48,145 bases of DNA from a virus. Lineage: Duplodnaviria; Heunggongvirae; Uroviricota; Caudoviricetes. The notes beneath the pieces were generated by a model. It saw nothing but the letters and a program-made list of their open reading frames with translations, had not been told where the DNA came from and ran no database searches. The stretch lies in IMG/VR virus record IMGVR_UViG_2526164669_000027; one strand, written 5' to 3'. Shown piece by piece: positions 1 through 47,862 of this stretch (positions are counted from its first letter, which is position 1; each line of letters begins with the position of its first letter). A program made the translations under genes and the position numbers.

Positions 1-348
1 GTGGCTCATGATTTCAGTAATGCTGTAAAAGTAGCCGATGCAGAGGCCTCTCTACAAGAGAAGCAACTGTATAAAGTTCAGATTGCAGTGAAATCATTAA
101 TAGATTTTGTTGTCTTAAGTTTTGAACAGCTTGGGATTGAAAAACTTAACGAGTTAGTAGATCCCTCTCTAGATGAGTTACATCAAATAATTCTTGAGCT
201 GGATGCAAAAGCTAAAGAACTTGATGCCCTAGACTTACAGCAAATACTTCTGACCGCACAGATTATGATCCGCGACATCAAACAGAAAAATCCGGATTTG
301 TGCGCACAAAGCTCAAATATTCTGAAAAGAGCTAATATTTTTAAGTAA
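1..348 (+). CDS. hypothetical protein, 3' part only (5' end lies left of the window); AT-rich accessory gene beyond the tail fibre genes
   Basis: Open frame to the window edge; low GC and helical, Leu/Lys/Asp-rich composition unlike the adjacent tail genes; convergent with tfa. Confidence 0.4.
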   Translation: MAHDFSNAVKVADAEASLQEKQLYKVQIAVKSLIDFVVLSFEQLGIEKLNELVDPSLDELHQIILELDAKAKELDALDLQQILLTAQIMIRDIKQKNPDLCAQSSNILKRANIFK

Positions 349-380
349 CTTTAGATAATGAACGAGGCCCCCGGAGGCGT

Positions 381-509
381 ATGCACATGAACAAACTCCA
401 AACTATCGCTGATATGCTGAGACTAGCTAACCGTCTGAACGAAATCGTTGCAGAGATGGAAATCCGTAAGCAAGCTATGATTACTGAACTGGTCAGTAAA
501 GCTGCATAA
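381..509 (+). CDS. small hypothetical protein (42 aa)
   Basis: ATG at 381 preceded by GGAGG (372-376); stop just before a hairpin terminator; not in the ORF track (<60 aa). Confidence 0.3.
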   Translation: MHMNKLQTIADMLRLANRLNEIVAEMEIRKQAMITELVSKAA

Positions 510-514
510 TACTC

Positions 515-540
515 AAAACCCGGCTTAAAGCCGGGTTTTC
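515..540 (+). terminator. intrinsic terminator-like hairpin
   Basis: AAAACCCGGC-TTAAA-GCCGGGTTTT stem-loop with T-run, between convergent genes. Confidence 0.55.
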
Positions 541-632
541 TATTCCTTTAACTAAACTTCGCGATCTTTTCTGGGCTAATTGACGCACAATTCTGGGCAG
601 GGAGCGCGCAGCCAAAAGCCTAGAATTGACCG

Positions 633-1211
633 CTAATTACTGCTAATCACCATCTCTCTGATTGAGCGTAAATCATCCAGATTATTCAGTTCATCCTTCA
701 TCTCCCGCTGGCGACGATAAATCGCGTCATTGCGATCAACCTGTGCCTGCGCCATTGCTGTCGCCAGTTCTTCCAGTTCCGGCATTGACAGTTTCACCTG
801 TTGATTATCGGCGTCACCCCACGCAAGGGCGGTTCGTGCCGTATCGGATTTCGCCGCCATTACTACCGGATAAAGACGGGCCATTGAGTCGGGGCCAGCG
901 TTCCAGGTGCGACCGTTCCATTCGAACGTGAACGGCAGTGCTTCCTGTTCTGTACGCCACGCCTCGATTTCCCGCTTTTTGGCATCTTTTGCCGCAGCGA
1001 TAAGTTCCGGCGTGACGGTGAACGGGGCGATTTCGCCCCATTTGCCGCTCTGCAACTCTTCCCAGATGCGCTGGCCTGTCGGTGCGGTATCGTCCTGCAT
1101 GGCGGTATACAGGACGAATTCCGTTTCACCTTCAAATAACACCTCGCAGTCAACCGCACCATTTTCAAGATAATGCGCGTTTCTGATGCCTTTTACTGCT
1201 CTGATTTTCAT
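633..1211 (-). CDS. tfa: tail fibre assembly protein (Tfa-like)
   Basis: 192-aa ORF directly downstream of the side tail fibre gene; resembles lambdoid Tfa as recalled. Confidence 0.75.
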   Translation of the reverse strand: MKIRAVKGIRNAHYLENGAVDCEVLFEGETEFVLYTAMQDDTAPTGQRIWEELQSGKWGEIAPFTVTPELIAAAKDAKKREIEAWRTEQEALPFTFEWNGRTWNAGPDSMARLYPVVMAAKSDTARTALAWGDADNQQVKLSMPELEELATAMAQAQVDRNDAIYRRQREMKDELNNLDDLRSIREMVISSN

Positions 1212-1225
1212 GTCTTATCTCCCCG

Positions 1226-3340
1226 TTACTCGATGCGCACAAACAGACACGCATAACCATACTGACCGAGTGTGGTGGTTGCATTTTGCCCTGACAGCGC
1301 CATGTATCGACCGGGAAAACCAGCACATGCGCCTGATGAGCCCGGGGTGCCGACAAGGAATCGTGGATTTCCGGTAAAAATCCCGGTATCACCGGCACTG
1401 CAGAGTATTGCCAGTGGGCTGAGTCGTGAGCCCTGAACAACGTCACCCTGGGCTATTTTTTTATCGTCGTCGTTGAGATGGAGTCCCCGGTACACGGCAA
1501 AAATCGGGACGCCAACCGCCGGATATTTGTAGTATGAGGAGGAGTCAGTGCCTGCTGTTCTGGACAACAGGAACGCCAGCGAATCGCCGTCGTAAATAAT
1601 GGGGCTTACTGTTGCATTCCAGTTGTTTCCACTCCAGCGATAAGTCAGGCGATGAATACTGTGCTCACCTTCGTAATACTGGTTAAAACACAGCAGCGTT
1701 TTGAATTTGCGCGTCGTGTCTGACTCGTCGTTATCAAAGGGTGACCACATCACATCAATGATGCCGTTAAATTTCGTGGTGCCCGCCAGTAGTGTGGAAG
1801 AGTCCGCAATACTGACCGCATAACGCCCCGGGGTGGCCTCTTTCAGCCATTCAGCAAAATCGGCCTGTCCGTTAAATGTCAGGGCTTCGGTGCTGGTAAA
1901 TGCCTGACCGAACCCATGCATACCGGACAGTGCCAGCCTGCCCGGTGTACGGTCGCGGATATCGCTCTGGGGTTCCATCGTCGCAGCCGCTTTCAGTTCA
2001 AGCTCCGTGCGCATGGCCTCAGACGTGTCCAGCGCCAGTAATGCGCGGGCTTTTTCTGACAGTTGCGCCAGTAAAATCCGGCCCTCTGCACTGAAATAAG
2101 GCAGTGTGTTTTCTTCCGGTGTTATCTGGCTGACAGCCGTTAACACGTCATTAAGCGGCTGTTTACCTGCCAGTGCTTTAGTGACGGTTGTCGCAAAGTT
2201 CGGGTCATTACCCAGCGCCGCTGCCAGCTCGTTCAGTGTGTCCAGGGCTTCCGGTGACGAGTCAACCAGTGCGGCAAGCAGTTTGCGGACAAAAGCAGCA
2301 TTCGCTGTTTCCAGACCAGCAGCATCATCCGGTGGTGTTGGTGTGGTTGGCGTGCCGGTGAATGCCGGGCTGTCCAGCGGCGCTTTTGTTTTCATCTCGT
2401 CCATGACGGTTTTGACAGCCTTTGGTGTGGCAGCCAGTTCTTCGCTGTCGTTATCCGTATCACTACAGAGTTGCACCAGGCCTTTTTGCGTCGTGCTGGC
2501 GTTGGTTCCCTTCAGGTCATCAACTATCCGTTGCGCCTCGTCCCTGTGCTGTTTCGCGCTCTGCTCGCTTTTGGCAGCCGCTTCGGCGCTGGCTTTTGCC
2601 TCGCCGGTCAGCGTTGCGGCATCAGCAAGTTTATCGAGCGCTTTCTGGACTATCGCGTCAGCATCCTTGACAGCCTGCTCTGCGCGGGCGGCATCCTGTG
2701 TGGCAGATGATGCCAGGAGCGCCACCTGATTTTTATCTTCGGCAACGGCTTCTGCATTCTGCTGTACGTTATCCGCCAGCGTCTGGCAGTCGCTCTTAAT
2801 TTGTTGCGCATCAGCGACATGTTGCCCGGCCTGTCGTTCGCTTTCTGCAGCGGCTTCGGCATTTTGCTGTGCCTGATTTTTTAGCTCTTCTGCATTATTT
2901 TTACTGTCAAGAGCAGAAGTCGCTGCGTTTGTTGCCGTCTCCGCTGCCGCCTCTGCTCTTTCACGATCATTGGTGACCTGCTCCGACTGCCGGGCAACCG
3001 CATCCACCATTTCCTCAAAGCGCTTCATCACCTCCGGACGTAAATCACCATCCTTTGGTGCATCCAGAAACGCGTTAAGTGTCCCCGGTGCATCAGTCGG
3101 TGCCACATAAATATCCCCGACACGGGTTGGCTGCCAGCCGTTACGGTGAAGCGCAACCTCGTAATACCCCGGCTCAGCCTCAATCACATAAGCACCGTTA
3201 TTGTCCGTCACACAAGTGGCAACAACGTGTGCCACAACGGTCGGACTGGTTCTTCTGGCTCGCAATTCAATCGCACAATTTACGACAGGTTTACCCGCCC
3301 CATCTTTCAGTACACCTGAAATCTTTACTGCCATATTCAC
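1226..3340 (-). CDS. stf: side tail fibre protein (Stf-like), 704 aa
   Basis: Position between lom and tfa; long Ala/Gln/Glu-rich coiled central region and C-terminal fibre-tip domain. Confidence 0.8.
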   Translation of the reverse strand: MNMAVKISGVLKDGAGKPVVNCAIELRARRTSPTVVAHVVATCVTDNNGAYVIEAEPGYYEVALHRNGWQPTRVGDIYVAPTDAPGTLNAFLDAPKDGDLRPEVMKRFEEMVDAVARQSEQVTNDRERAEAAAETATNAATSALDSKNNAEELKNQAQQNAEAAAESERQAGQHVADAQQIKSDCQTLADNVQQNAEAVAEDKNQVALLASSATQDAARAEQAVKDADAIVQKALDKLADAATLTGEAKASAEAAAKSEQSAKQHRDEAQRIVDDLKGTNASTTQKGLVQLCSDTDNDSEELAATPKAVKTVMDEMKTKAPLDSPAFTGTPTTPTPPDDAAGLETANAAFVRKLLAALVDSSPEALDTLNELAAALGNDPNFATTVTKALAGKQPLNDVLTAVSQITPEENTLPYFSAEGRILLAQLSEKARALLALDTSEAMRTELELKAAATMEPQSDIRDRTPGRLALSGMHGFGQAFTSTEALTFNGQADFAEWLKEATPGRYAVSIADSSTLLAGTTKFNGIIDVMWSPFDNDESDTTRKFKTLLCFNQYYEGEHSIHRLTYRWSGNNWNATVSPIIYDGDSLAFLLSRTAGTDSSSYYKYPAVGVPIFAVYRGLHLNDDDKKIAQGDVVQGSRLSPLAILCSAGDTGIFTGNPRFLVGTPGSSGACAGFPGRYMALSGQNATTTLGQYGYACLFVRIE

Positions 3341-3398
3341 CCCACAAAAAAGCCCGCCTGAACCGGCGGGCTGTCATAACACTGTGTTACCTGGCTAA

Positions 3399-3998
3399 TC
3401 AGAACTTATAACCGACACCCATGATGAAACCGTCAGTGCGCCAGTCGCCACTGCCGGAGCCTTCATAAGCAATATCAATGGCCACGGATTCGGTCGGGTT
3501 AAACTGCACGCCAGCTCCCCACGCCAGAGACGTGTTGCTGTGGCGACCGTCATCACTTCCGGTCAGCACATCGTGCGTTTTCCCCTTGTTGTCAGTTACG
3601 CGGAGATAATCTCCGGAGAAAGTCGAAACACGGCTGTAAGCCATACCCGCCATCGCATACGCGCTGAACCATTCATTCACGCGCACAGACGGCCCCGCCA
3701 TTACGCTGAACCCGCGGTTACGAACGGAATCTTCATGCCAGCGGGTATCGCTGTAGTGCGTTTTTTGCTCATCTTTGGCATTGGCATAACTGAATGACGT
3801 CACAACACCCAGCATGTCCGTAAACTCATAACGGTATTTCACGTTAATCCCGTTCAGATCATCACTACCGGGAACGTTCGTCGAGGCATGGAGATACCCC
3901 GCGCTCAGCGTGGACTGATGTTCTGCTGCACTCGCTGGCGTGGCAGCGGCGACCTGCCAGACTACTGCGGACAAAATAACAGCACATAATTTACGCAT
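3399..3998 (-). CDS. lom: Lom/Ail-family outer membrane beta-barrel protein
   Basis: 199 aa, signal peptide, C-terminal ...GVGYKF typical of the Ail/Lom family; sits downstream of J as in lambda. Confidence 0.9.
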   Translation of the reverse strand: MRKLCAVILSAVVWQVAAATPASAAEHQSTLSAGYLHASTNVPGSDDLNGINVKYRYEFTDMLGVVTSFSYANAKDEQKTHYSDTRWHEDSVRNRGFSVMAGPSVRVNEWFSAYAMAGMAYSRVSTFSGDYLRVTDNKGKTHDVLTGSDDGRHSNTSLAWGAGVQFNPTESVAIDIAYEGSGSGDWRTDGFIMGVGYKF

Positions 3999-4065
3999 AA
4001 TTACCTCTCGCTTTTCTGCAATAAAAAAGGCGCCATTTCTGGCGCCCGTATCTGGGTTATAAAAT

Positions 4066-7000
4066 TCAGCTAATCGTGATGCCTGCAGTGGCTTTCTTCA
4101 TCACCACAACCAGCAAATCGCTGATACTTGCTGTGGGATACCAGTTATTTACCAGCCATGCTGACACCGAAAACTCCAGTGTCATGTGACCGTGACCGGC
4201 AGGCATATCAATAACACCACTGTAAATCAGCGTATTATCCAGCGCGGTACGGTTATAAATTTCAGCACCGTTTTTCCGTACTATCAGACGGCATGAGGAG
4301 TAAATATCAGTATACTCTTTCTCATGTTTAGCGCCGCTGAATGCCACCGCCGGAATAACAATCTGCCGGTCAAACGGCTGATCGTCATAAACCCTGACGG
4401 TAATGGTTCCTGATGGCCACCGCTCCGGTGCACGGGAGTCCCGGGGGAAAGCTTTGCCCACTGTTTTAACGAGATCGCCTTCAATCTGGTTGGCGGACAA
4501 TTTTCCCAGAACCCGACAGTTCTCGTTAATCGTGACGTTGTTGAGCGTCCCGGAGTTCGCATTCACGTTACCGCTGATATCGGCATTTTTCGCCGTCAGC
4601 CGCCCGTCCGGTGTCAGGGAAAATGCCGGAGGATTACCGCCGCTGGTAATGGTCGGAGCCGTCAGGCGTTTCAGGAACACGTCGTTCATGAATACCTGGT
4701 TGCCCTGCGCCACAAACATCGGAGTGGTGTTGCCATTGGACGGATCAATAAACGCGATACGGTTAGCGGCAACCAGGAACTGGCTCAGTTTGCCTTCCTC
4801 CGTGTCCTCCATGCTGAGGCCAAGTCCCGCGACATAATGCTTACCGTCTTCGGTCTGCTCAATTTTGACGCCCCACATGGCATTCCATTTATCGTTGGCG
4901 TCTTTCCACTCTTTCGAAAACTGATCCAGTCTGCTGGCGTTATCTTCCGTCAGGTCGACTTTTTCCAGCAGCTCCTTGCCGAGATGGGATTCGGTTATCT
5001 GGCCTTTGAAAAAATCCAGGTAACCTTCCGCATCATCGCTCGCCCGACCGACAGCCTCCACAAATGCCGATTTGCCAACAGTGTTCACACTACGGATATA
5101 AAAATAATAATCATGGCCCGGTTTGATATTGATACTGGCGGCTATCCAGTACAGCGCCGTGCCAAGATAGCGGGCTGTGGTTTCAACCTGCCTGATATCC
5201 GCAATCCGCTTTTCCGAGAACCAGAACTCAAACTGTACCGTCGGATCATAAACGGCAAGATGCGGCGTGGCGGTTATCTGAAAATAGCCCGGCGTCAGCT
5301 CAATCCGCGACGGTGCTGCCGGTGCGGCAATCCGGAACGATACCGATGCCGGATCGCCCTGCTGCCCCCAGGCATTTGCCGCCCGGACTGTCAACCTGTA
5401 GTTTCCCAGCGCCAGTTGCGTGAAGCGGTATGTGGTTTCCGTCGTCCGGGCCGTGCTGACCAGCCGCTCACTGCCGTCGTCTGCTGCCACAGTCAGGCGA
5501 AGCATAAAGCTCACACCCTTCACCACCTTCGGCGTGTCCCATCGCGCCAGCACCTGATATTCCCCGCTGTCTGCAGTGACTTCGGCGGTCAGATGCTGCA
5601 CTGCTGGCGGCGTGACACCCTTCACCGTGCCGCTCTGGTCACCGTCAAAGTGCGCCCCGTTATCCACGATGGCCTCTTTCTCCGGCACATGCTGCACGGC
5701 AGTGATGGCATACGTGCCGTCGTCGTTCTCACGGATACTCACGCAGCGGAACAGGCGCTGGCGCAGCGTCGGCAGCTTAAGCCCCCACACGCTGTATTCA
5801 GCAACACCGTCAGGAACACGGCTCACTTTTACCTTCACGCCGTCGGTGACGGACTGAACCTCCACGCTGACCGGATTGCCACTTCCGTCAACCAGGCTTA
5901 TCAGCGTGGTACCGGAGGGTGGCAGCATGATTTCACGGTCAAGCGTCAGCGTCCGGGTCTCGCTGTTCACCGCCAGCACGCGACCACCGGTACTGATACC
6001 GGCATAGTCATCATCGCAGACTTCAATGACGTCACCCGGTACATGGCGAAGCCCTTCTGCACCCACGCTGAAGTCCACCGTCTGCGTTTCCAGTAGTTCC
6101 GTTTTAATCAGCCACAGCCCGGCGCGGTGTGCCTGCCCCCGGCTGGTACAGCCAAAGGCATCCATCTTCGTAACATTACGACCGTAACGGGCAATGGCCT
6201 GCGTATCTTCAACAAGCTCTGTCGCCGTCTCCCAGCCGTTGTTCGGGTCAATCCAGTTCACCTCAACGGCATTATGGCGGTCCTTCAGGGCGCTGAAGCT
6301 GTAGCGGAACGGCGCGCCATCATCCGGCATCACCACATTACTGCGGTTATAGGTCCACGCCTTATCCGACGGTCGGTCCTGCACGAACGTCAGCGTCTGC
6401 CCGTTCCATACCGGCATACAGCGCATCGCCGAGCAGAAATCGCTGAGCACATCCCACGCCTTACGCTGTGTGGTCAGGTACGCATTACAGGTGATGCGCG
6501 GCTCCGTGCCGCCAAAGCCGTCCGGCACTGACTGGTCGCAGTACTGGCCGATGACATACAGCGCCCATTTATCCACATCTGCCGCACCAAGACGTTTCCC
6601 CATGCCGTAGCGTGGATGGGTCAGCATATCCCACAGACACCAGGCCATGTTGTCGCTGTACGCAGGCTTAAACGTTCCGTCCCAGATACCGCTGTATTGC
6701 CGCGTCTGCGGGTTATAGTTCGACGGCACCTGCAGAATGCGCCCGCGAAGATGATAATTACGACTCACCTGCTGGCTGCCGAACTGCTCCGAGTCCACCT
6801 GTACACCGACCAGTGCCGTGTTCGGGTAGCCCTGTTTCACATCGATGATTTCGGTGTATGACGACCAGAGCGTTTTGTTCTGCAGCTGGTCTGTAGTGCT
6901 GTCCGGCGTCATTCTGCGCATCCGGATATTAAACGGGCGCGGCGGCAGGTTACCCACCACCACCGAGGCCAGATACTGCGAGGTGGTTTTGCCCTTAATG

Positions 7001-7461
7001 GTGATGTCTTTTTCCGTCACCCAGCCACCATTACGCTGTATCTGAACCAGCAGACGGACTTCCGACGGATTCCTGTCACCCTTTGAGGTGGTTTCCACCA
7101 GTGCCTGCACACCGAAGGTAAAGCGCAGACGGTCGATGTTTGCAGACGTGATGGTCCGGGTAATCGGCGTGTCGTACTTCACTTCCGTACCCAGCACCGT
7201 CTCGGAGCCGGAGGATTCAAATCCCTCCGGCGGTGTCTGCTCCTGCTCACCTGCCCGGAACACCACCGTGACGCCGGATATATTGGTATTCCCCTCACTG
7301 TCCAGCACCGGCGTACTGTTCAGCAGCACGCTTTTTAATCCATCCACCGGACCTTCAATCGGCCCTTCACTGATCGCATCAATCACGCTCAGTAACTGCG
7401 TGGATTTCAGGTTATCTTTCGCTTCGCGAGGAGTGTGCCCCTTGCTGCCACCTTTACCCAT
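4066..7461 (-). CDS. J: host specificity / central tail fibre protein J (1131 aa)
   Basis: Size and position match lambda J; follows I/K/L/M. Confidence 0.95.
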
Positions 7462-7521
7462 TTATCTGGCTCCATTAACAACAAAACCGCCCGCAGGCGG
7501 TTTCACATAAAACGTTTTACA

Positions 7522-8169
7522 TCAGCGACCAATCACCACAACCTGACCACCATCACCCTCATCAGCAGTACTGATACTCTGTGAAATCACACGCGACCCC
7601 ACACGCATCTCACCATACAGTACCGGTAACGGATTCCCCTGGGCGATCATATTATCCAGCGAGGAAAAAAAGGTGTTCTGCTTGCCGTTATCCGTTGTCT
7701 GTGTACGGGGGGTTTTGGGTTTAGGTGCCAGCATCTGCGCCACACCGCCCAAGATCATACTGGCCCCTGCCGCATACATGCCCGATACAGCCGCGGCACC
7801 CAGCCAGCCCACAGGGTTCCACCATGCCACCGCAATCAACGCCGCCCCCAGCACCACCTGAAATACACCGCCACTTTTAGCTCCCGCCAGACGCGGCACG
7901 ATATGGATCACGGCACCATTTGCCAGCGGCTCATTAAGACGGGCAGATAATTCGGTTTCACCTGCATCACGCCCGGCAATGCGCACCTGATACCAGCCGT
8001 CATTCAGCTTCTGACGAAACGCCGGGAGCTGTGTGGCCAGCGCCCGGATGGCTTCGGCCCCCGTTTTCACACGAAGGTCGATGCGGCGGCCAAATCGTTG
8101 CAAATCCCCGTAAAGGCAGATGCGTGCCATGCCCGGTGACGCCAGAGGGAGTGTGTACGTCGCTGCCAT
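7522..8169 (-). CDS. I: tail assembly protein I
   Basis: Translation MAATYTLPLASPGMARICLYGDLQRFGRR... closely matches lambda I as recalled. Confidence 0.9.
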   Translation of the reverse strand: MAATYTLPLASPGMARICLYGDLQRFGRRIDLRVKTGAEAIRALATQLPAFRQKLNDGWYQVRIAGRDAGETELSARLNEPLANGAVIHIVPRLAGAKSGGVFQVVLGAALIAVAWWNPVGWLGAAAVSGMYAAGASMILGGVAQMLAPKPKTPRTQTTDNGKQNTFFSSLDNMIAQGNPLPVLYGEMRVGSRVISQSISTADEGDGGQVVVIGR

Positions 8170-8810
8170 TTGTCGGTATACCTCTCTCGTTTGCTCAGTT
8201 GTTCAGGAATATGGTGCAGCAGCTCGCCGTCACCACAGTAAATGGCGGCATGATTCGGCACCGATGAACCAAAACAGCACAGCAGCACATCGCCCGGTTG
8301 TGCTGATGACAACGGCACCTGATACAGCCCCGTGGCCTCCAGATTATCCAGATAGAGATTCTGACCGTTACGCCACCAGTCATCCCCGCGATGAAAATCC
8401 GGCATCTCAATCCCCGCCAGATGATAAGCATCCCGGAACAGCGTGTAACAGTCCGTCACCCCGTGCTCAAAGCGTCGCCCGGTAAGATGCGGCACACTGC
8501 GAAATTTATGAATCTCACCCCGGCAGACCAGCCACCAAGGCAAATCGCTCTGCACCTGCAGCCGCCGGTCGGCCTCACTCAGCCAGGGCAGACCACCGGG
8601 GTGGCTGTGGACCAGCGCCACAATCTCACCCTGCATCTCTGCCCGCAGCCAGTCCTCCGGCGACATCCGGAAATACGCCTCCGGCTCACCGGAGATATTC
8701 ACGCAGGGAAAATATCTTTCCCCTTCCGGCGTTCTCACCACGAAGCCGCACGACTCCGCTGGCGCACATCGCCGGGCGTGCGCCAGAATCGCTGATTCTG
8801 TCTCTGTCAT
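8067..8810 (-). CDS. K: tail assembly protein K (NlpC/P60 plus MPN-like domains)
   Basis: Translation MTETESAILAHARRCAPAESCGFVV... closely matches lambda K as recalled; overlaps I as in lambda. Confidence 0.9.
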   Translation of the reverse strand: MTETESAILAHARRCAPAESCGFVVRTPEGERYFPCVNISGEPEAYFRMSPEDWLRAEMQGEIVALVHSHPGGLPWLSEADRRLQVQSDLPWWLVCRGEIHKFRSVPHLTGRRFEHGVTDCYTLFRDAYHLAGIEMPDFHRGDDWWRNGQNLYLDNLEATGLYQVPLSSAQPGDVLLCCFGSSVPNHAAIYCGDGELLHHIPEQLSKRERYTDKWQRRTHSLWRHRAWHASAFTGICNDLAAASTFV

Positions 8811-8815
8811 GGGAT

Positions 8816-9514
8816 TTACTGCGAAAGTTTGTTAATGGAAAGGAAGCCGCCAAAGTTGCCGACGTTATTGCGGAACTTACAACCGCTCAGGCATTTGCTG
8901 CATTTATCCTTCGTGATATCGGACGTTGGCTGGTCATATTCATCCGCGACAGCCGGACCGTGATAACCGCACTCGTCACCGCGATAGGTCCAGGTGCAGG
9001 TGTTGGCCAGCATGATACGTCCCGGAAAAACAGCGCCATCCGTTTCCGTCGGCGTGGACAGTACAAAGGAGGCACTTACCGCTGTTAAATTGCTACACTG
9101 CTCGATGCGCCAGCGGCTGATAATCTCCTGCTCCGGATCGGCTTCGCTGTTTCCGTTTGCGAAATTCACCGCATCCAGAAAACGGGCGTAAACCTTACGC
9201 CGGACCACCGTTCCGCCGACCAGACTCTGCAGGTCTTCTGCCATTCCGGTGACCGTACCGTACAGGTTAGAGACCGTCAGTGTCGGACGGGCAGCACTGC
9301 CCTTGCCGTTCAGTTCAAAACCGCTCCCCTGAATGGGATACGCCTGATACTGTCGCCCCTGCCAGGTGACCGGCTCACCTTTTTCGTTCTGCTCATTACA
9401 GAAAAAATAACGTTCTCCACCGACCTCTGTCAGATCGATTTCCCAGAGCTCGACCAGCGCGGATTGCTCCGATTTTGTACACTCATTCTGTGTTTCCTGC
9501 TGTATATCCTGCAT
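8816..9514 (-). CDS. L: minor tail protein L
   Basis: 232 aa in lambda gene order with Cys-rich C-terminus. Confidence 0.9.
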   Translation of the reverse strand: MQDIQQETQNECTKSEQSALVELWEIDLTEVGGERYFFCNEQNEKGEPVTWQGRQYQAYPIQGSGFELNGKGSAARPTLTVSNLYGTVTGMAEDLQSLVGGTVVRRKVYARFLDAVNFANGNSEADPEQEIISRWRIEQCSNLTAVSASFVLSTPTETDGAVFPGRIMLANTCTWTYRGDECGYHGPAVADEYDQPTSDITKDKCSKCLSGCKFRNNVGNFGGFLSINKLSQ

Positions 9515-9843
9515 CAGTTTACCACCTGCTCAAAATCTGCCGTTACAGTTACCCATAACGCACCAACGCTTGCCGACCATTTACGACAAACCACCCTGAC
9601 AGGTTTCCAGCCATAAGGTGGTGTCCACTGAAACGCTCTGACACCGCCATGTCGCACCAGAAAATCCTCCAGCGACTGATGTTCTCCTTTACGTATCCGG
9701 ATAGTCACACTGTAAACGGGCAATACATTATTCAGCCCTGCCGGTCGCCGCTGCTCATAGCCATCCCCCAGCTTTACCGTCAACACCTTCGGTTCCGATG
9801 CCACAGTCATATCAGGGCGAATTTTCCAGTGAAAAGTTTCCAT
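9514..9843 (-). CDS. M: minor tail protein M
   Basis: 109 aa between H and L; stop/start overlap with L. Confidence 0.85.
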   Translation of the reverse strand: METFHWKIRPDMTVASEPKVLTVKLGDGYEQRRPAGLNNVLPVYSVTIRIRKGEHQSLEDFLVRHGGVRAFQWTPPYGWKPVRVVCRKWSASVGALWVTVTADFEQVVN

Positions 9844-12800
9844 TACCGATATGCTCCGCTTAACTGACCACCATCACGGGACTGCTGTTGCATAAAGTCC
9901 GCTGCTGCTTTTTTCCCGAGGTCATAAACCACCTTCAGGGCAGCCGGACCTATCTGCCCGTTCGTACCATCGTTATTGATCTCGATGTTGTACTGCGGGG
10001 CAAACATCACCATACCTGAACCACCAATATCCGCCACAACACCCAGCCTGCCATCAGCACCACGACGCAATGGCAGAATGGCTTCAGGCCCCGCTTCTCC
10101 CATCACACCCGCGCCTTTTGCAAAAGCAAAAAACGTAGGACGGTTAACCACCGTGCCACTGTAGCGACTCAAATCAGCAGACTGATAAACACCACCATCA
10201 GCATTGGGCGTCACACTGGCAGTTGCTGCACTCCCCCAGCCAAACGCCGAACCAATCCCCTTAACTGCCTGCATCATGGCCATCTGCGACATGATTTTTG
10301 CCAGATCAGAAAGGAGCGAGGCGGTAAAAGATTTGAAGTTCAGTTTTCCGGTGGTACAGAACGTCGCCAGTGCATTACCTGCACTGTTAAATGCCGCTGT
10401 AAACATCTGCTCAGCGGTACCTGCCGCGTTATCCGCACTCTCTGTAAAATTCTGAAACGCCCGCATGGCACCGTTTTTCCAGTCTGCCTGCATCAGTTCC
10501 TGTTCCTGCCAGTAGCGTCTGTTTTCATTCAGTTGCCGGTTAAGACTGTCTGTCAGCATCTGCTCAGCATTCCGGTATTCATCTGTGCCGTATGTTCCTT
10601 TCTGCTTACTGTCACGCTCCAGCTGTTCCAGTTGCTGCTGGTATTTTTGTTGCAGACTGAACTGCGCCTGGTATCGCTGACGCTGTTTATCCCCCATCCC
10701 TGTCGTGGCGATATCCAGGTCATGTTGCTGACGCAGAGTCCGTTCCTCTTCCGCCAGCTGGCTGGCAAGCTGAATGGATTTTTTCTTAAGGTCATTCAGC
10801 GCCGTCTGCTTCTGCAGCTCCTGCTGTTTTGCATCCAGCAGCGTCAGCGCCTGAATCAGTTCATCCTTATGCGCCAGCACGCTTTTTTCATCTGCCGTCA
10901 GCTTTTTACCGGCTAAATCACTGATACGCTGCTGCAGGGCCAGAAGCTGCTTATGCGCTTCCGTCATTTTTTCCGTGGTCAGTCCCGCAGACTGTCTGGC
11001 GGCGGCGATCTGCCCCTCCACCTGCGCCTGCTGCTGACTGTACTGCAACAGCAACCGGGTGGCTTCATCATTGCGGTTTTCAGATGTTTTTTTCTTAATG
11101 GCTTTTTCGTAACGTTCATTTTCACGCTGTATCGCTGCGTCCCTGACCGCCTGGTCGGCGTACTGCATGGCATTGATGCGCGCAATTTCACGTTGATGTC
11201 GCGCCGCTTCCGTTTCATTCATCCGGTTCAGCGCAGCATTTTCAGCATTCCGGCGTTTCTGCTGTTCCTGATAATTTCGTTCAGCCTGCGCTTTTGCATC
11301 CTGTAAATCTTTCTGGCGCTTTTTCTCCTGAAGTTCATCAAGGCGTTGCTGGTCGTATTCCACTGTGGTGGATGCATTTGTCCAGGGCGATTTTTTCGCA
11401 CGCTGAATTTTTTCCTGCAGCGCCGCAATCTGCGCATCAAGGGAATCATTACGCCCGATATTCATGGCGGCATCCCAGAACTGCTTCCACCAGTCAGATA
11501 AGGTTTGCAGCGTACTGCCCAGCGCATTGAGATTATTATCAATATCAGATGTGCGTTTACCGGTTTCCTCTGCCAGTGCAGACATGGCTATCCGGGCGGC
11601 GTCACTGGTGCGCCCCTGCTCTCCGAGCACACGGATCTGTTCAAGCTGGGTGGCTGTCAGAAAATGCAGTTCATCATCCAGCGCCTTCGCAGCACTGACC
11701 GGATCATCCTTCAGCCGTTTAAACTGACTGATGGTGTCACTGACAGACTGCCCTACCGAGCGTTCCATCTGTGCGGCAGCTTTCGCCACCATACCAATAT
11801 CGTTACCGTGAAATGCACCGCTCCCCACTACCTGCGCCAGTGCCCCCGCCATGGCATGTTGCGTGATGCCATTACCGGAAAGATTTTTACTGAGCGCCCA
11901 CAACTGCCCGGCTGTCACACCGGCATAGTGTCCGGTGAGCTCAAGCTGCCGGTTAAAGGCTTCGCCTTCTTCCTGCCCCTCCATCCAGGCTTTACCCAGA
12001 CCAATAACCGCAGCAGTGATCCCTCCGATAACTCCCCCCACCGCCAGGCCTTTCGGAGTCATTAATTTATCAATCCAGCCGGCACGGTTAGCCAGGGTGA
12101 TCCCGGAGCCACGAAGCGCACCGAAATTACCACGCGCCAGTTCACCAATCATGACCCCCAGCTCCCGACGGGCTGCCGCACTTTTCAGTCCCAGCGAATG
12201 TGTGACCTTCCCGGCTTTTTCCATTTTGCTGATATACACCTCAGCCGCACTACTGACACCCAGCTGCGCGGCTTTTGCCCTGAGCAGCTCCGTGGATGAA
12301 AGATTCTGAGCGGATACCTGCTCCTTCAGCCGCCGGATAAAGGCCGTCTTCTGGCGGGCGGCGGATTCTTCAGCCTGAGCCAGCACGCGGGTTTTCGCTG
12401 TCACCTCAGAAATCAGGGCCAGATAATCCTGCTGAGCAATCCCGCCACTGTTTCTGGCCTGTCGGATCTGCTGCTGAATACGCTGTAACTCCTGCAGCCC
12501 CGCACTGGCCTGTTTTACGCTGTCGATCTGACGATAAAATGCGGCAGCCATCTTATCCTGCGCCGCAGCCAGCGCAGCCGCCTGAACCTGCTCCTCCCGC
12601 ATCTGACGACTCAGGGCCTCCATCCGCAGGCGCGCCCTTTCCACATCTTCCGCCAGCGAAACATGCCCCTGCGCATGCTTCACCACGGCCTGAGTCTGTA
12701 TCACCGTCGCGCTGGCAGCCTGTTTCTGACTTTCCTCAAACCGTTTCATACGGGCTTCGGCCCGCTCCGCCTCCCTTGCTGTACCATTCAGCAGATTTTT

Positions 12801-12875
12801 TACACGCGGAAGCTGCTCTTTAAAATCGGCGGTATCAATGCTTAAATCAATGACAAGGTCAGCAATCTGGTCCAA
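9843..12875 (-). CDS. H: tail tape measure protein H (1010 aa)
   Basis: Long coiled-coil-rich ORF with Gly-rich C-terminal region, downstream of G/T. Confidence 0.9.
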   Translation of the reverse strand: MDQIADLVIDLSIDTADFKEQLPRVKNLLNGTAREAERAEARMKRFEESQKQAASATVIQTQAVVKHAQGHVSLAEDVERARLRMEALSRQMREEQVQAAALAAAQDKMAAAFYRQIDSVKQASAGLQELQRIQQQIRQARNSGGIAQQDYLALISEVTAKTRVLAQAEESAARQKTAFIRRLKEQVSAQNLSSTELLRAKAAQLGVSSAAEVYISKMEKAGKVTHSLGLKSAAARRELGVMIGELARGNFGALRGSGITLANRAGWIDKLMTPKGLAVGGVIGGITAAVIGLGKAWMEGQEEGEAFNRQLELTGHYAGVTAGQLWALSKNLSGNGITQHAMAGALAQVVGSGAFHGNDIGMVAKAAAQMERSVGQSVSDTISQFKRLKDDPVSAAKALDDELHFLTATQLEQIRVLGEQGRTSDAARIAMSALAEETGKRTSDIDNNLNALGSTLQTLSDWWKQFWDAAMNIGRNDSLDAQIAALQEKIQRAKKSPWTNASTTVEYDQQRLDELQEKKRQKDLQDAKAQAERNYQEQQKRRNAENAALNRMNETEAARHQREIARINAMQYADQAVRDAAIQRENERYEKAIKKKTSENRNDEATRLLLQYSQQQAQVEGQIAAARQSAGLTTEKMTEAHKQLLALQQRISDLAGKKLTADEKSVLAHKDELIQALTLLDAKQQELQKQTALNDLKKKSIQLASQLAEEERTLRQQHDLDIATTGMGDKQRQRYQAQFSLQQKYQQQLEQLERDSKQKGTYGTDEYRNAEQMLTDSLNRQLNENRRYWQEQELMQADWKNGAMRAFQNFTESADNAAGTAEQMFTAAFNSAGNALATFCTTGKLNFKSFTASLLSDLAKIMSQMAMMQAVKGIGSAFGWGSAATASVTPNADGGVYQSADLSRYSGTVVNRPTFFAFAKGAGVMGEAGPEAILPLRRGADGRLGVVADIGGSGMVMFAPQYNIEINNDGTNGQIGPAALKVVYDLGKKAAADFMQQQSRDGGQLSGAYR

Positions 12876-29541: not shown

Positions 29542-30729
29542 ATGTCTCTTCGCTTCAGACAAACTTTTACCATTTTCCCCGGAGTACGCCTTAACATCGG
29601 TAAACATGGGGTAAGCGCAAGTTTTGGTGTCCCCGGAGCCACAGTTAATGTTAACCAAAAAGGAATTAAAGCAACTCTAGGGTTACCAGGATCTGGTTTA
29701 TCGTATACATCCCCTCGTTTACCATACAAAGACAAACCATCCACAACCATTCAGCTAAATCCGTCGTCTGTAGAATCTCATATTGATGCACCCGAGTTAA
29801 TTTCAGACAACACCCCATCAAACGCAAAAATGTACATGCCACAAACAGGCATGAATGAAATCTCCAGTGCCTCAGTAGAGGCCTTGACAAGTACATCTCT
29901 TTTACCTTTACGAGACTTGATCGTTAAAGCACGAGAACAAAGAGCGGAAATAGCATCTGACTTACAAGAGGCTCTTGCAGAAGAATCAAGACAAAAGAGT
30001 GAATTGGCTCGACGTAAATCAAGCCTGTTTCGATGGTTTTATAAACGTCGCATTGCAGAACTTGAAGCAACGCTACCACAAATACAAGCAGAAGTATCTC
30101 GTCTTGTATCCTGGGAAGATAACACTAAAATCGTCATTAATTTCGAAACCAGCGATTCCTCACAGCGGGCTTATGCAGCAATGATTCGTGCTTTCGATAT
30201 TTTAAAATCAAGTATCAAAAAATGGGATATTACCGCAGATAAAGCTATAGATCAGTTTGCAGAAAGGACGTTAGCTACACGAGCAGTTGATCGTCATCCA
30301 GTCGTATTTGATTTCGCTTCAACAGATCTAATTCGTTTTACTGGAAGAGCAATGCGATTTGAAAATGTCAATGGCGACGATATATTGCTTTATCCGGGTA
30401 TTGCTGTAATTCCTCGCCCCGATGGGGCATTTGCTCTGATTGACTTACGGGAATTACAAATTAATGCGCAGCATCAAGGGTTCCATGAAGAGGATGGTGT
30501 TCCGAGTGATGCCAGCATAGCTGGGCATACATGGGCAAAAACAAATAAAGATGGCTCACCAGACCGACGATTTAAAGATAACTATCAAATCCCAATTTGC
30601 ATTTATGGAAAGTTATATTTCCAGTCCCAAACAGGCATTACAGAAGAATACATGGTATCAAATGCTGATGCTGCTCTAGCTTTCGCGGAGGCATTTAAGC
30701 GCTATCAGGATTCACTTAGCATGGAGTAA
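29542..30729 (+). CDS. hypothetical 395-aa protein; N-terminal Gly/Val-rich segment (DUF4236-like as recalled), coiled-coil segment, uncharacterised C-terminal domain
   Basis: Clean ORF with own upstream region, low GC, antisense to the late operon, in the Q-to-lysis cargo slot. Confidence 0.8.
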   Translation: MSLRFRQTFTIFPGVRLNIGKHGVSASFGVPGATVNVNQKGIKATLGLPGSGLSYTSPRLPYKDKPSTTIQLNPSSVESHIDAPELISDNTPSNAKMYMPQTGMNEISSASVEALTSTSLLPLRDLIVKAREQRAEIASDLQEALAEESRQKSELARRKSSLFRWFYKRRIAELEATLPQIQAEVSRLVSWEDNTKIVINFETSDSSQRAYAAMIRAFDILKSSIKKWDITADKAIDQFAERTLATRAVDRHPVVFDFASTDLIRFTGRAMRFENVNGDDILLYPGIAVIPRPDGAFALIDLRELQINAQHQGFHEEDGVPSDASIAGHTWAKTNKDGSPDRRFKDNYQIPICIYGKLYFQSQTGITEEYMVSNADAALAFAEAFKRYQDSLSME

Positions 30730-45796: not shown

Positions 45797-47110
45797 ATGG
45801 ATAAAGTCAAATATCCAACAGGCGTCGAAAACCACGGTGGCACATTACGCATCTGGTTTAATTTTAAAGGTAAACGTGTCAGGGAAAATCTTGGTGTCCC
45901 TGACACTGCCAAGAACAGGAAGATCGCCGGAGAGCTGCGGACATCTGTATGTTTTGCCATTCGTACAGGAAACTTTGATTACGCTGCGCAGTTCCCTGAC
46001 TCTCCTAACCTCAAGGCTTTTGGGGTAAATAAAAAAGAAATTACGGTGAAAGAGCTTGAAGAAAAGTGGCTGGATCTGAAACGCATGGAAATCTCTGCAA
46101 ATGCATTCAATCGCTATGAATCCGTTGCAAGAACGGTGGTTCCGAAAATTGGAGGTAGCAGACTGGTGTCAACGGTGACCAAAGAGGAATTACTGTATAT
46201 CAGGAAAGATTTGCTGACCGGATATCAGAATTCAACGAAAGACAAAGCACCAGCAAGAGGACGGAGCGTCGTTACTGTAAATTATTATATGACGACAATC
46301 GCTGGAATGTTTCAGTTTGCTGCAGATCACGGTTACTTAGAAGCAAATCCCTTCGAGGGAATTAAGCCTCTTAAAAGAGCCAGGGCAGAGCCAGATCCGC
46401 TAACTCGTGACGAATTTATTCGCCTGATAGATGCTTGCCGGCATCAGCAGACAAAAAACCTGTGGTCATTGGCTGTGTACACAGGAATGCGTCATGGTGA
46501 ACTGGTCTCCCTGGCCTGGGAAGATATCGATCTGAAAGCAGGAACAATTACTATCAGGCGCAATTATACGAAACTCGGTGAGTTCACTCTACCTAAAACT
46601 GAAGCAAGTACAAACAGGGTTGTGCATCTTATCCAGCCCGCTATCAGTGTCCTGAAAAATCAGGCTGAAATGACAAGACTGGGTAAGCAGCACCACATCA
46701 AGGTTCAACTACGTGAATATGGACGTACAGTGAACCATGAATGTACTTTCGTATTTAACCCCCAGGTGGTTAGAAAAAGCAAACAGGTCGGTTTTATCTA
46801 CAAGGTAGATTCTATTGGCGACTCATGGGAAACAGCCATTAAGCGTGCGGGCATCAGGCACCGGAAAGCATACCAGTCACGACACACTTATGCGTGCTGG
46901 TCATTATCTGCCGGAGCAAACCCAAGCTTCATTGCCAGCCAGATGGGCCATGCAAGTGCCCAGATGGTGTTCAATGTATACGGAGCATGGATGACTGACA
47001 GTAATGCAGAACAGATCGCAATGCTGAATCAGAAGCTGGCAGATTATGTCCCAATGATGTCCCATGGTCACCAAAGTGACACAAGAGACTTATTAAAATC
47101 AGTGGGTTAG
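45797..47110 (+). CDS. int: tyrosine-type site-specific integrase
   Basis: 437 aa; C-terminal catalytic region with R..HxxR..Y pattern (..GMRHGEL.., ..SRHTYACWS.., ..NVYGAW..); adjacent to the host junction. Confidence 0.9.
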   Translation: MDKVKYPTGVENHGGTLRIWFNFKGKRVRENLGVPDTAKNRKIAGELRTSVCFAIRTGNFDYAAQFPDSPNLKAFGVNKKEITVKELEEKWLDLKRMEISANAFNRYESVARTVVPKIGGSRLVSTVTKEELLYIRKDLLTGYQNSTKDKAPARGRSVVTVNYYMTTIAGMFQFAADHGYLEANPFEGIKPLKRARAEPDPLTRDEFIRLIDACRHQQTKNLWSLAVYTGMRHGELVSLAWEDIDLKAGTITIRRNYTKLGEFTLPKTEASTNRVVHLIQPAISVLKNQAEMTRLGKQHHIKVQLREYGRTVNHECTFVFNPQVVRKSKQVGFIYKVDSIGDSWETAIKRAGIRHRKAYQSRHTYACWSLSAGANPSFIASQMGHASAQMVFNVYGAWMTDSNAEQIAMLNQKLADYVPMMSHGHQSDTRDLLKSVG

Positions 47111-47125
47111 CCTTCAATACCCGTC
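47100..47125. other. prophage-host junction (att core expected here)
   Basis: Integrase stop at 47108-47110; yecE-like translation begins about 47116-47122. Confidence 0.45.
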
Positions 47126-47862
47126 ATGTTAACTGCGTGGAGGGCAACACCACGCTTTACGCCCTGCCGAAACCCGAGGTTGTCCTGCGCTGGCGTGAAC
47201 AGACCACAGATGACTTCCGCTTCTGTTTTAAGTTTCCGGCGACCATTTCGCATCAGGCAGCATTACGACATTGCGATGATTTAGTGACTGAATTTTTGAC
47301 CCGCATGTCACCGTTGGCTCCGCGCATTGGGCAATACTGGCTGCAACTGCCTGCCACATTCGGCCCACGGGAGCTGCCTGCGCTTTGGCATTTTCTCGAT
47401 TCTCTCCCTGGCGAATTTAATTATGGTGTGGAAGTCCGCCATCCACAGTTTTTCGCCAAAGGGGAAGAGGAACAAACTCTTAATCGCGGTTTACATCAGC
47501 GCGGCGTTAATCGGGTGATTTTAGACAGCCGCCCGGTTCATGCAGCATGTCCACACAGTGAAGCTATTCGCGACGCTCAACGAAAAAAACCTAAAGTTCC
47601 GGTACATGCTGTACTGACGGCGACAAATCCGCTGATCCGTTTTATCGGTAGTGATGATATGACGCAAAACCGGGAATTATTTCAGGTCTGGTTACAGAAA
47701 TTAGCGCAGTGGCATCAGACCACTACGCCTTATCTTTTTTTACATACGCCAGACATTGCCCAGGCCCCGGAACTGGTACATACCCTGTGGGAAGACTTAC
47801 GTAAAACGCTTCCAGAGATCGGAGCAGTTCCGGCTATTCCACAGCAATCTTCTCTTTTCTGA
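47116..47862 (+). CDS. yecE: host yecE-like protein (DUF72 family), original 5' end displaced by the prophage
   Basis: ..NCVEGNTTLYALPKPEVVLRWREQTTDDFRFCFKFP.. matches E. coli YecE as recalled from about residue 30 on; GC content shifts. Confidence 0.7.
   Translation, partial: NTRHVNCVEGNTTLYALPKPEVVLRWREQTTDDFRFCFKFPATISHQAALRHCDDLVTEFLTRMSPLAPRIGQYWLQLPATFGPRELPALWHFLDSLPGEFNYGVEVRHPQFFAKGEEEQTLNRGLHQRGVNRVILDSRPVHAACPHSEAIRDAQRKKPKVPVHAVLTATNPLIRFIGSDDMTQNRELFQVWLQKLAQWHQTTTPYLFLHTPDIAQAPELVHTLWEDLRKTLPEIGAVPAIPQQSSLF

Follow-up and report, generated by a model that had tools for sequence, protein, structure and literature searches.

A Junction in yecE of Escherichia coli Read as the attR Site of a phiP27-Type Prophage

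Introduction

In phage lambda the 3′ end of int abuts attP, in which the core is followed on the int side by an IHF site and then by arm-type repeats in tandem; the other arm holds more of them. The 7-bp overlap region of this site lies between imperfect inverted core-type sites, and the system includes an Int with an N-terminal arm-binding domain and a separate excisionase. Phages that integrate into genes often bring along a copy of the target's end, as do phage 21 and e14 in icd. In such gene-restoring integration, known also from tRNA genes, the element carries a replacement 3′ end and the gene stays intact.

The E. coli gene yecE is an integration site of Stx and lambdoid phages (PMC8065619, PMC9751135, PMC8705337); the initial annotation of the DNA studied here had named it as such, and the phiP27 record documents the same. 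Phage phiP27 (NC_003356 / AJ298298) is an Stx2e-converting phage (Recktenwald and Schmidt 2002, as cited in PMC8065619), and our comparison with it is based on its GenBank features and on reviews citing that paper. Other phages described at yecE carry stx2a or stx2d (Stx2_12E129_yecE, LC567842; vB_EcoS_ULI-O80_Stx2d, PMC9751135).

Results

Position of the Junction and Content of the Prophage

The DNA analysed was a stretch of 48,145 nt (IMG/VR virus record IMGVR_UViG_2526164669_000027), called the window below. We assign positions 47100–47140 with high confidence as attR (P′-core-B′) of an apparently complete, stx-negative prophage of ~47.9 kb, which has a phiP27-type integration module and is inserted in E. 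coli yecE. What carries this assignment is the anatomy of the sequence together with the direct repeat, the identity with phiP27 and the frequency of the junction in the population. As an attR junction in yecE it is ordinary and of a kind already known. The following features were recognized:

45505–45741, plus strand: excisionase gene, 78 aa, DUF1233 putative excisionase (Pfam PF06806, E 9.5e-33)
45797–47110, plus strand: tyrosine integrase gene, 437 aa, phiP27 type, stop codon TAG at 47108–47110 (ORF, Pfam, phiP27 identity)
47046–47065, plus strand: two putative arm-type repeats, ATGTCCCAA (47046–47054) and ATGTCCCAT (47057–47065), 11 bp apart in the 3′ coding end of int (P′ arm)
47097–47109, plus strand: IHF-consensus-like sequence AATCAGTGGGTTA, a lead only, between the arm repeats and the core and overlapping the int stop codon
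47120–47128, plus strand: putative phage-side core-type half-site CCCGTCATG (C), from comparison of attR, attB, attL and attP; host counterpart CCCGCCACT
47129–47139, plus strand: 11-bp att core TTAACTGCGTG, which holds the crossover and is identical in attR, attB, attL and the phiP27 att features
47131–47862, plus strand: 3′ part of yecE, native codons 30–272 and stop, separated from the promoter, start codon and first 28 codons
47915–48145, plus strand, running off the window end: host gene yecN (MAPEG family), from RefSeq annotation of the colinear region

The initial annotation had placed a prophage–host junction within yecE right after the integrase gene, and this was borne out by the integrase ORF, which stops at 47108–47110, and by yecE sequence reaching to 47862. 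Over all 437 aa the integrase shares 98.6% identity with phiP27 Int, and it matches the Pfam families Arm-DNA-bind_2 (PF12167, E 4.6e-24) and Phage_integrase (PF00589, E 2.4e-18); exactly this protein is listed in 769 blocks of a public assembly collection. The excisionase is annotated likewise in phiP27 and in RefSeq genomes. Also encoded in the window are a CI-like repressor with an S24 peptidase domain, a methylase, an endolysin, the terminase-to-tail genes and a tail fibre. An int–yecE fusion or frameshift was rejected, as yecE is read in another frame than int (+2 relative to it), with no sign of recoding.

The prophage shares with phiP27 the yecE target, the 11-bp core, the 18-nt spacing between the int stop codon and the core, and the xis-int and early region; over its last 5 kb the window is 97% identical to phiP27 bases 1–4998. 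The phiP27 att features (1–11 and 42565–42575) are the reverse complement of window positions 47129–47139. Unlike phiP27, the window prophage has neither stx2e nor the ileZ/argO tRNAs: phiP27 17.1–19.1 kb (tRNAs and stx2e) is unmatched in the window, and the matches flank instead ~690 bp (27134–27825) that hold only a tRNA-Gly(TCC). A Shiga-toxin-converting phage, which would have stxA/stxB between the Q antiterminator/methylase region and the lysis genes, was rejected on this ground, no stx being present. The tail genes differ as well, being lambda-like in the window (J, Lom, tail fibre), whereas phiP27 has contractile tail and baseplate genes.

The Stx2a/Stx2d phages are inserted at the same position of yecE (junction ...CCGTCACATTAACTGCGTGGAGGG), have the arm-type motif TG(T/C)CCCA in the 3′ end of int and encode an integrase of the same family with 76% identity. 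Yet their integrase (428 aa) forms a distinct lineage, their duplication is longer and imperfect (21 bp), and they carry stx2 and T3SS effector cargo.

The Core and the Left End of the Prophage

The core TTAACTGCGTG was identical in the window attR, attB of K-12, attL of strain 2011C-4251, attL of the window prophage, attP and the phiP27 att features. In K-12, attB reads GCCCGCCACT-TTAACTGCGTG-GAGGG, and the homology of the window starts at the core. About 0.02 occurrences of an 11-mer are expected by chance in 48 kb on both strands; TTAACTGCGTG was seen once in the window, and a search for a second copy inside it found none, because attL lies outside the window.

The junction is real, and its exact site is a little further right than first placed. 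When unoccupied yecE alleles are aligned with the window, the match covers only the part to the right, beginning at 47117 or 47129. A yecE-like translation beginning 6–12 nt past the integrase stop had been proposed; there is indeed a resemblance at 47117–47128, but the true identity block starts 19 nt past the last base of the stop codon. Similarly, the core had been thought to overlap the 3′ end of the integrase gene. With 18 nt between the int stop and the core there is no such overlap with the integrase ORF. The arm repeats do lie within the 3′ coding end of int, so the wider attP overlaps int, through its P′ arm only.

The attL of the window prophage was read on other assemblies that share its left end, not on the window's own record. 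In six contigs (L005–L010, all those carrying the left-end gene of the window) it is CCCGCCACT-TTAACTGCGTG-ACAGGGCTATTTTAG, beside yecD, so that the direct repeat looked for at the other prophage boundary is present. Upstream of the attL core all six contigs have yecD and yecE codons 1–28. The native 5′ end of yecE, which the initial annotation held to have been replaced by the prophage, is as read from these contigs displaced to attL, ~47.9 kb leftward and just outside the window. In 6/6 contigs the distance from the end of the attL core to window position 1 is 763 nt, which gives a prophage length of ~47.9 kb. Four of the contigs (L005, L007, L008 and L010) differ from the left end of the window by 0–2 mismatches over 3.5–11.2 kb and L009 by 7 over 6.2 kb; L006 diverges deeper into the prophage (597 mismatches over 10.2 kb). 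Both attL and attR were seen in one genome in 2011C-4251 and in AST217. When window positions 1–4000 were compared with 5426 complete E. coli genomes, no record reached 80% coverage and none of those listed matched positions 1–655, which places the source genome outside this set. An exact 40-mer from window positions 61–100 gave 0 matches among the GTDB representative genomes.

The 7-bp overlap region is probably TTAACTG (47129–47135). In AST217, core position 8 is C in attL and T in attR, and the T allele is the native one of unoccupied relatives (100% match over 301 bp). This polymorphism places the exchange left of 47136, which fits TTAACTG, with the reservation that just two natural polymorphisms bracket the region and that heteroduplex segregation could yield the same pattern. 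By analogy with lambda-type tyrosine integrases, strand exchange by Int would take place within TTAACTG, which corresponds to yecE codons 29–31.

Putative Integrase and IHF Binding Sites

Positions 47117–47128 are phage DNA with a partial likeness to yecE (CCCGTCATG vs. CCCGCCACT; translation TRHV vs. ARHF). They probably look like yecE because they form a core-type half-site of the integrase. A dyad partner could be read from the sequences right of the overlap (CGTGGAGGG / CGTGACAGGG). The unrelated gene ybdK is a secondary site; it has CCCGCCAT-TTTACTGCGTGG in common, and its half-site is CCCGCCATA.

The motif TG(T/C)CCCA of the two repeats in the int coding end was found by k-mer analysis of the reconstructed attP in 5 further copies, all of them in the P arm and beyond the window, giving 7 copies in 611 bp. 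Four attP variants retain it, as do two further integrase lineages that use yecE. Over the whole window ATGYCCCAW was not enriched (3 found vs. 2.35 expected); the evidence for arm sites is the clustering in attP and the conservation, not enrichment across the window. From the lambda P′ sites we infer that these repeats bind Int. The N-terminal arm-binding domain of Int would contact the two repeats in its own 3′ coding end and the five in the P arm, and its C-terminal domains would contact core-type half-sites of the form CCC(G/T)YCAY.

The IHF consensus is WATCAANNNNTTR, from which AATCAGTGGGTTA departs by one mismatch; the sequence is conserved in the strain 361 variant. The window resembles lambda in that the 3′ end of int adjoins attP, in the layout of core, IHF-like site and putative arm repeats, with more repeats in the other arm, in a probable 7-bp overlap between imperfect inverted core-type sites, and in having an Int with an N-terminal arm-binding domain and a separate excisionase. 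The sequences differ, however, and the target is a protein-coding gene here vs. the gal-bio intergenic region in lambda; the arm repeats of the window lie inside the int coding sequence, and the gap between int stop and core is just 18 nt.

Fate of yecE

Integration splits yecE. At attL, codons 1–28 remain beside yecD under the native promoter and read into a 36-aa fusion peptide, and at attR native codons 30–272 lie directly behind int. From N30 on, the attR translation is that of K-12 YecE except for R168C; codon 29 is changed from F to V. The product matches Pfam DUF72. The yecE frame remains open 17 codons into phage DNA, where the phage-derived codons agree with native YecE solely at Leu22, Arg27 and His28.

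No ATG, GTG or TTG occurs in the window between the in-frame stop at 47077–47079 and the native Val32 GTG at 47137. RefSeq calls a 256-aa product from an ATT start at 47092 and marks it as an intact CDS, and another caller starts at GTG 47137 (241 aa). Scans of 46700–47400 found no promoter-like site on the plus strand and no terminator between int and the yecE remainder. Since the attR copy has neither its own promoter nor a canonical start, the presence of the prophage, judging from the DNA, most likely leaves yecE inactive. A functional YecE from this copy is unlikely, and some expression through read-through from int may occur.

As in gene-restoring integration, the insertion lies within a gene and the phage DNA by the core resembles the target. 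Here, in contrast, the break is near the 5′ end of yecE, the phage gives at most ~9–16 codons with no canonical start, and the attR copy lacks native residues 1–28, so that the gene is split, not restored. Upon excision, Int and the adjacent excisionase would restore yecE precisely.

Frequency in E. coli

The same junction as in the window was present in 326 of 5426 complete E. coli genomes, while 4903/5426 had an uninterrupted yecE site and 100/5426 a junction of the Stx2a/Stx2d type. Strains SE11 and 2011C-4251 are examples of lysogens with the junction of the window. Thus ~6% of complete genomes are occupied by this integrase type, and yecE is interrupted in some way in ~10%. Strain 361-type junctions were counted in 258 genomes at ≥80% coverage, a number that is probably inflated, since 182 of the best places, all at <90% identity, are likely phiP27-type junctions picked up by cross-matching; the real number is probably near 80.

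Discussion

A split and inactive yecE could be disputed by supposing that the phage deliberately re-expresses the gene, the phage DNA behind int giving a new start and a short N-terminus to a functional, remodelled YecE translationally linked to int. We consider this very improbable. In 3/3 integrase lineages examined, the DNA contributed by the phage keeps the yecE frame open. The strain 361 lineage has an ATG in this frame that shares bases with the int stop (ATATGA); translation from it gives MRMIKISKLVHHARHF-NCVEG, in which MIKIS is loosely like native MIYIG and ARHF is exactly reproduced. In RefSeq the CDS at attR counts as intact, with a length of 256 or 259 aa, and Pfam DUF72 scores 160 bits for the attR product vs. 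171 for native YecE, with profile positions 10–215 covered in both. However, the two ATG positions of strain 361 read AAG and CTT in the window, where just ATT 47092 or the internal GTG 47137 is on offer, neither with a good Shine-Dalgarno sequence nor with a promoter-like site. Between strand 1 and the ARHF segment every variant is some 20 residues short, and the native N-terminus (MIxxGL...) is conserved out to the distant solved homologue EF0366 and is therefore probably part of the YecE fold. The conserved phage bases are also explained more simply as attP elements, namely the core-type half-site, found also at ybdK, and the IHF-like site. In its general form the idea would be that yecE-targeting integrase modules use the region of the int stop codon also to begin translation of a YecE with a remodelled N-terminus, an arrangement plain to see in the strain 361 lineage and degenerate (ATT or nothing) in that of the window. 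We give it very little credence; if true, lysogeny would rewire yecE to int expression and not just destroy it.

The likeness of bases 47117–47128 to yecE might otherwise be a relic of a yecE fragment captured from a former host, the identity block having once been longer, with no relation to integrase binding. Gene-integrating phages with a copied target end offer a precedent, the strain 361 lineage has 21 bp identical to yecE (GCCCGCCACTTTAACTGCGTG), and an Stx2a phage record annotates a 21-bp imperfect duplication. We regard this as unlikely, because the ybdK secondary site, in the opposite coding orientation, has CCCGCCA at the same distance from the overlap, and because the motif recurs inverted right of the overlap in attB and attP, as core-type sites would. 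Capture and binding by the integrase are, in fact, compatible with each other. Many E. coli prophages are defective, and the window could likewise hold a decayed, immobile remnant whose apparent att site is a mere scar. That is highly unlikely here, given that int and xis are intact, that the repressor, methylase, endolysin, terminase-to-tail and tail fibre genes are all encoded, that both core copies are perfect and that hundreds of assemblies share one and the same Int protein. The attR junction of an apparently complete prophage, with a putative core-type half-site beside its core, stays our preferred reading.

The value of these results is mostly one of annotation, as they fix the exact attR core (47129–47139) and the boundaries of the ~47.9-kb prophage. 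What RefSeq annotates beside these integrases as a 256-aa "DUF72 protein" is a piece of a split gene, and its ATT start is doubtful. The small refinements gained, none of them new biology, concern the arm-site motif within the coding end of int, the secondary site in ybdK and the 7-bp stretch that is the probable overlap. Since phiP27-type modules bear stx2e in other strains, recognition of the module helps to type Stx and non-Stx prophages at yecE.

The integrase–yecE junction

The right end of the prophage carries its integration genes next to host sequence, arranged as follows:

45505-45741: excisionase gene (78 aa, DUF1233), upstream of the integrase gene
45797-47110, plus strand: integrase ORF (437 aa), stop codon TAG at 47108-47110
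47129-47139: att core, the exact identity block TTAACTGCGTG
from 47915: yecN, after the yecE stop

The integrase combines an N-terminal arm-DNA-binding domain (PF12167) with a tyrosine recombinase catalytic domain (PF00589). Its gene is followed by GTGGGTTAG CCTTCAATACCCGTCATG TTAACTGCGTG GAGGGCAACACC and then by yecE up to the stop at 47862, and at the matching place K-12 yecE reads GAAGAGTATGCCCGCCACT TTAACTGCGTG GAGGGCAACACC. Bases 47111-47128 are phage DNA. When the right end of the window was compared by megablast with 5426 complete E. coli genomes, unoccupied yecE alleles aligned only rightward from 47117 or 47129 and none further left. The host sequence proper begins 19-29 nt past the integrase stop, either inside the core or just behind it. 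The initial annotation was right to place a prophage-host junction in yecE at 47100-47140, just behind the integrase stop. It also read yecE-like translation soon after the stop, because phage CCCGTCATG (47120-47128) resembles host CCCGCCACT; the resemblance is real (TRHV in the yecE frame vs. the native ARHF), but these bases belong to the phage. The proposed overlap of the core with the 3′ end of the integrase gene did not hold, as 18 nt separate the two.

Anatomy of the attachment site

Four variants of attP, each rebuilt from the P′ side of its attR and the P side of its attL, were aligned. The motif TG(T/C)CCCA occurs in seven copies of one orientation within 611 bp of attP, vs. about 0.15 expected by chance (our estimate from motif length). 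Five copies lie 117-180 nt into the P arm, and the other two, 11 bp apart, are inside the 3′ coding end of the integrase gene:

47046-47054: putative arm repeat ATGTCCCAA
47057-47065: putative arm repeat ATGTCCCAT

As the motif is not enriched across the whole window, the case for it as an arm site rests on clustering and conservation; two further yecE-using integrase lineages also have it in their C-terminal codons. Because the P′ arm repeats are encoded within the last 22 integrase codons, the functional attP almost certainly overlaps the integrase gene. Between the arm repeats and the core, AATCAGTGGGTTA (47097-47109) has one mismatch to an IHF consensus, and is a lead only.

Dyad symmetry was seen about the core, in attP as CCCGTCATG-TTAACTG-CGTGACAGGG and in attB as CCCGCCACT-TTAACTG-CGTGGAGGG. 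The arrangement is of lambda type, with a putative 7-bp overlap, TTAACTG, between two putative core-type half-sites for the integrase.

Two natural variants fit this anatomy. In E. coli AST217 (L022) the cores at 9703 and 49495 differ at position 8, with C in attL (TTAACTGCGTG) and T in attR (TTAACTGTGTG). Since unoccupied relatives (100% match over 301 bp) natively carry the T, strand exchange to the left of position 8, within TTAACTG, would fit. GCA_900603255.1 has an occupied yecE (L015) and, next to ybdK, the identical 437-aa integrase a second time (L016 4333-4343, UWKA01000001.1). The native ybdK site CCCGCCATATTTACTGCGTGG (L021, ~300-325) shares 17 of 20 positions with attP, and one of the mismatches falls in the putative overlap. 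ybdK is thus a secondary attachment site, its junction being present in only one of the 5426 complete E. coli genomes. The gene has no relation to yecE and runs in the opposite orientation, so the CCCGCCA that the two sites have in common is better read as a recognition element of the integrase than as a relic of yecE.

The left end and extent of the prophage

The core TTAACTGCGTG was found only once in the window, and attL therefore lies outside it. A search for exact copies of the 192-aa tail-fibre assembly protein (633-1211, minus strand) yielded six contigs. Four of these (L005, L007, L008, L010) show 0-2 mismatches to the left end of the window over 3.5-11.2 kb; L009 shows 7, and L006 diverges deeper into the prophage. 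All six carry attL as yecD, yecE codons 1-28 and CCCGCCACT TTAACTGCGTG ACAGGGCTATTTTAG. The matching direct repeat sought at the other prophage end is thus present, and the native 5′ end of yecE, taken to have been replaced, instead lies beside yecD. There it runs into a 36-aa peptide (...NCV-TGLF*) called by gene callers. On every contig the attL core ends 763 nt left of position 1, so that with attL taken from these contigs the prophage would span about 47,902 bp between core ends. Both ends were seen within one complete genome each in 2011C-4251 and AST217, each with a 97%-identical integrase.

The tail-side end of the window (1-632) holds two ORFs, one of 115 aa (1-348) that has no Pfam match and a small one of ~40 aa; it looks like cargo, with the tail fibre genes on one side and attL on the other. 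Among the matches listed, 1-655 had no counterpart in complete E. coli records.

Relation to phage phiP27

The best phage match to the integration module is the Stx2e phage phiP27, whose bases 1-4998 are 97% identical to window 42142-47139, the last 5 kb. The integrases are 98.6% identical, the integrase-to-core distance is the same 18 nt, and the annotated 11-bp attL (1-11) and attR (42565-42575) of phiP27 are the reverse complement of 47129-47139. From the integrase to the replication region the window is phiP27-like in blocks of 71-97% identity (most 84-97%). A gene for a 275-aa SPFH/Band 7 lipoprotein near the integrase end (43833-44660) is kept in phiP27 (L05) and in Stx2a yecE phages. 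The 395-aa ORF with N-terminal DUF4236 (29542-30729, plus strand) is flanked by replication and methylase genes on the minus strand; phiP27 has a GIY-YIG nuclease gene at this place.

Unlike phiP27, which carries ileZ, argO and stx2e, the window has there ~690 bp with a single tRNA gene, and where phiP27 has contractile tail and baseplate genes, its tail module is lambda-like:

27517-27589: tRNA-Gly(TCC), the sole tRNA in 27134-27825
633-12875, minus strand: lambda-like tail module (tape measure, minor tail proteins L, K and I, 1131-aa J, Lom, 704-aa tail fibre, DUF4376 assembly protein)

By this comparison stx2e was not found and the prophage is stx-negative. It is a mosaic, phiP27-like in its early region and siphovirus in its late region. 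With genes for a CI-like repressor (HTH and S24 peptidase), an endolysin and a DNA methylase, it looks complete.

A review (PMC8065619), citing Recktenwald and Schmidt (2002), credits phiP27 with the first report of yecE as an Stx-phage integration site. Later reports place Stx2e, Stx2a and Stx2d prophages there (PMC8705337, PMC9751135), in agreement with the initial annotation. The assembly collection has 769 blocks with the exact integrase protein, and the 3′ part of yecE follows it in 9 of 10 among the matches listed. In the 5426 complete E. coli genomes, junctions of the window's type number 326 and those of Stx2a type 100; strain 361-type junctions number at most 258, a count probably inflated by cross-matches, with a true value probably near 80. 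The site is uninterrupted in 4903.

Fate of yecE in the lysogen

Native YecE has 272 aa and is broken in codons 29-32. At attR its frame is open leftward to a TGA at 47077-47079, and between this stop and the native Val32 codon (GTG, 47137) it contains no ATG, GTG or TTG. For the colinear sequence of other genomes RefSeq (PGAP) calls an intact 256-aa DUF72 domain-containing protein (47092-47862) from an ATT at 47092, overlapping the integrase gene by 19 nt; a second gene caller starts at GTG 47137 (241 aa). No convincing Shine-Dalgarno sequence precedes either start, and the RefSeq call looks like an annotation artefact of a split gene. As 46700-47400 holds no plus-strand promoter-like site (and no terminator), transcription of yecE at attR could come only from integrase read-through; attL keeps the native promoter, as well as the ATGA at which yecD and the yecE start overlap. 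EF0366, a distant homologue of solved structure (1VPY), begins MIRLGLTSF... in alignment with the lost N-terminus (MIYIGLPQW...), which therefore probably belongs to the YecE fold.

Re-expression of a remodelled YecE by some yecE phages is improbable, although the E. coli strain 361 lineage (L024 1790-1860, NZ_CM132949.1; integrase 77% aa identity, same yecE site) offers an argument for it. Here an in-frame ATG overlaps the integrase stop (ATATGA), phage DNA matches yecE codons 26-29 exactly, so that ARHF is kept, and the product reads MRMIKISKLVHHARHF-NCVEG...; RefSeq calls a 259-aa yecE starting MRMIKISKLVHHARHF. In the window, however, the places of that variant's two ATGs are taken by AAG and CTT. 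The phage-supplied start considered in the initial annotation is thus missing from the window's variant, and any product is probably non-functional.

The junction is a genuine but routine attR, formed by a known module at a known site, and as a finding it is not new. For the lysogen, we infer that yecE is inactivated.
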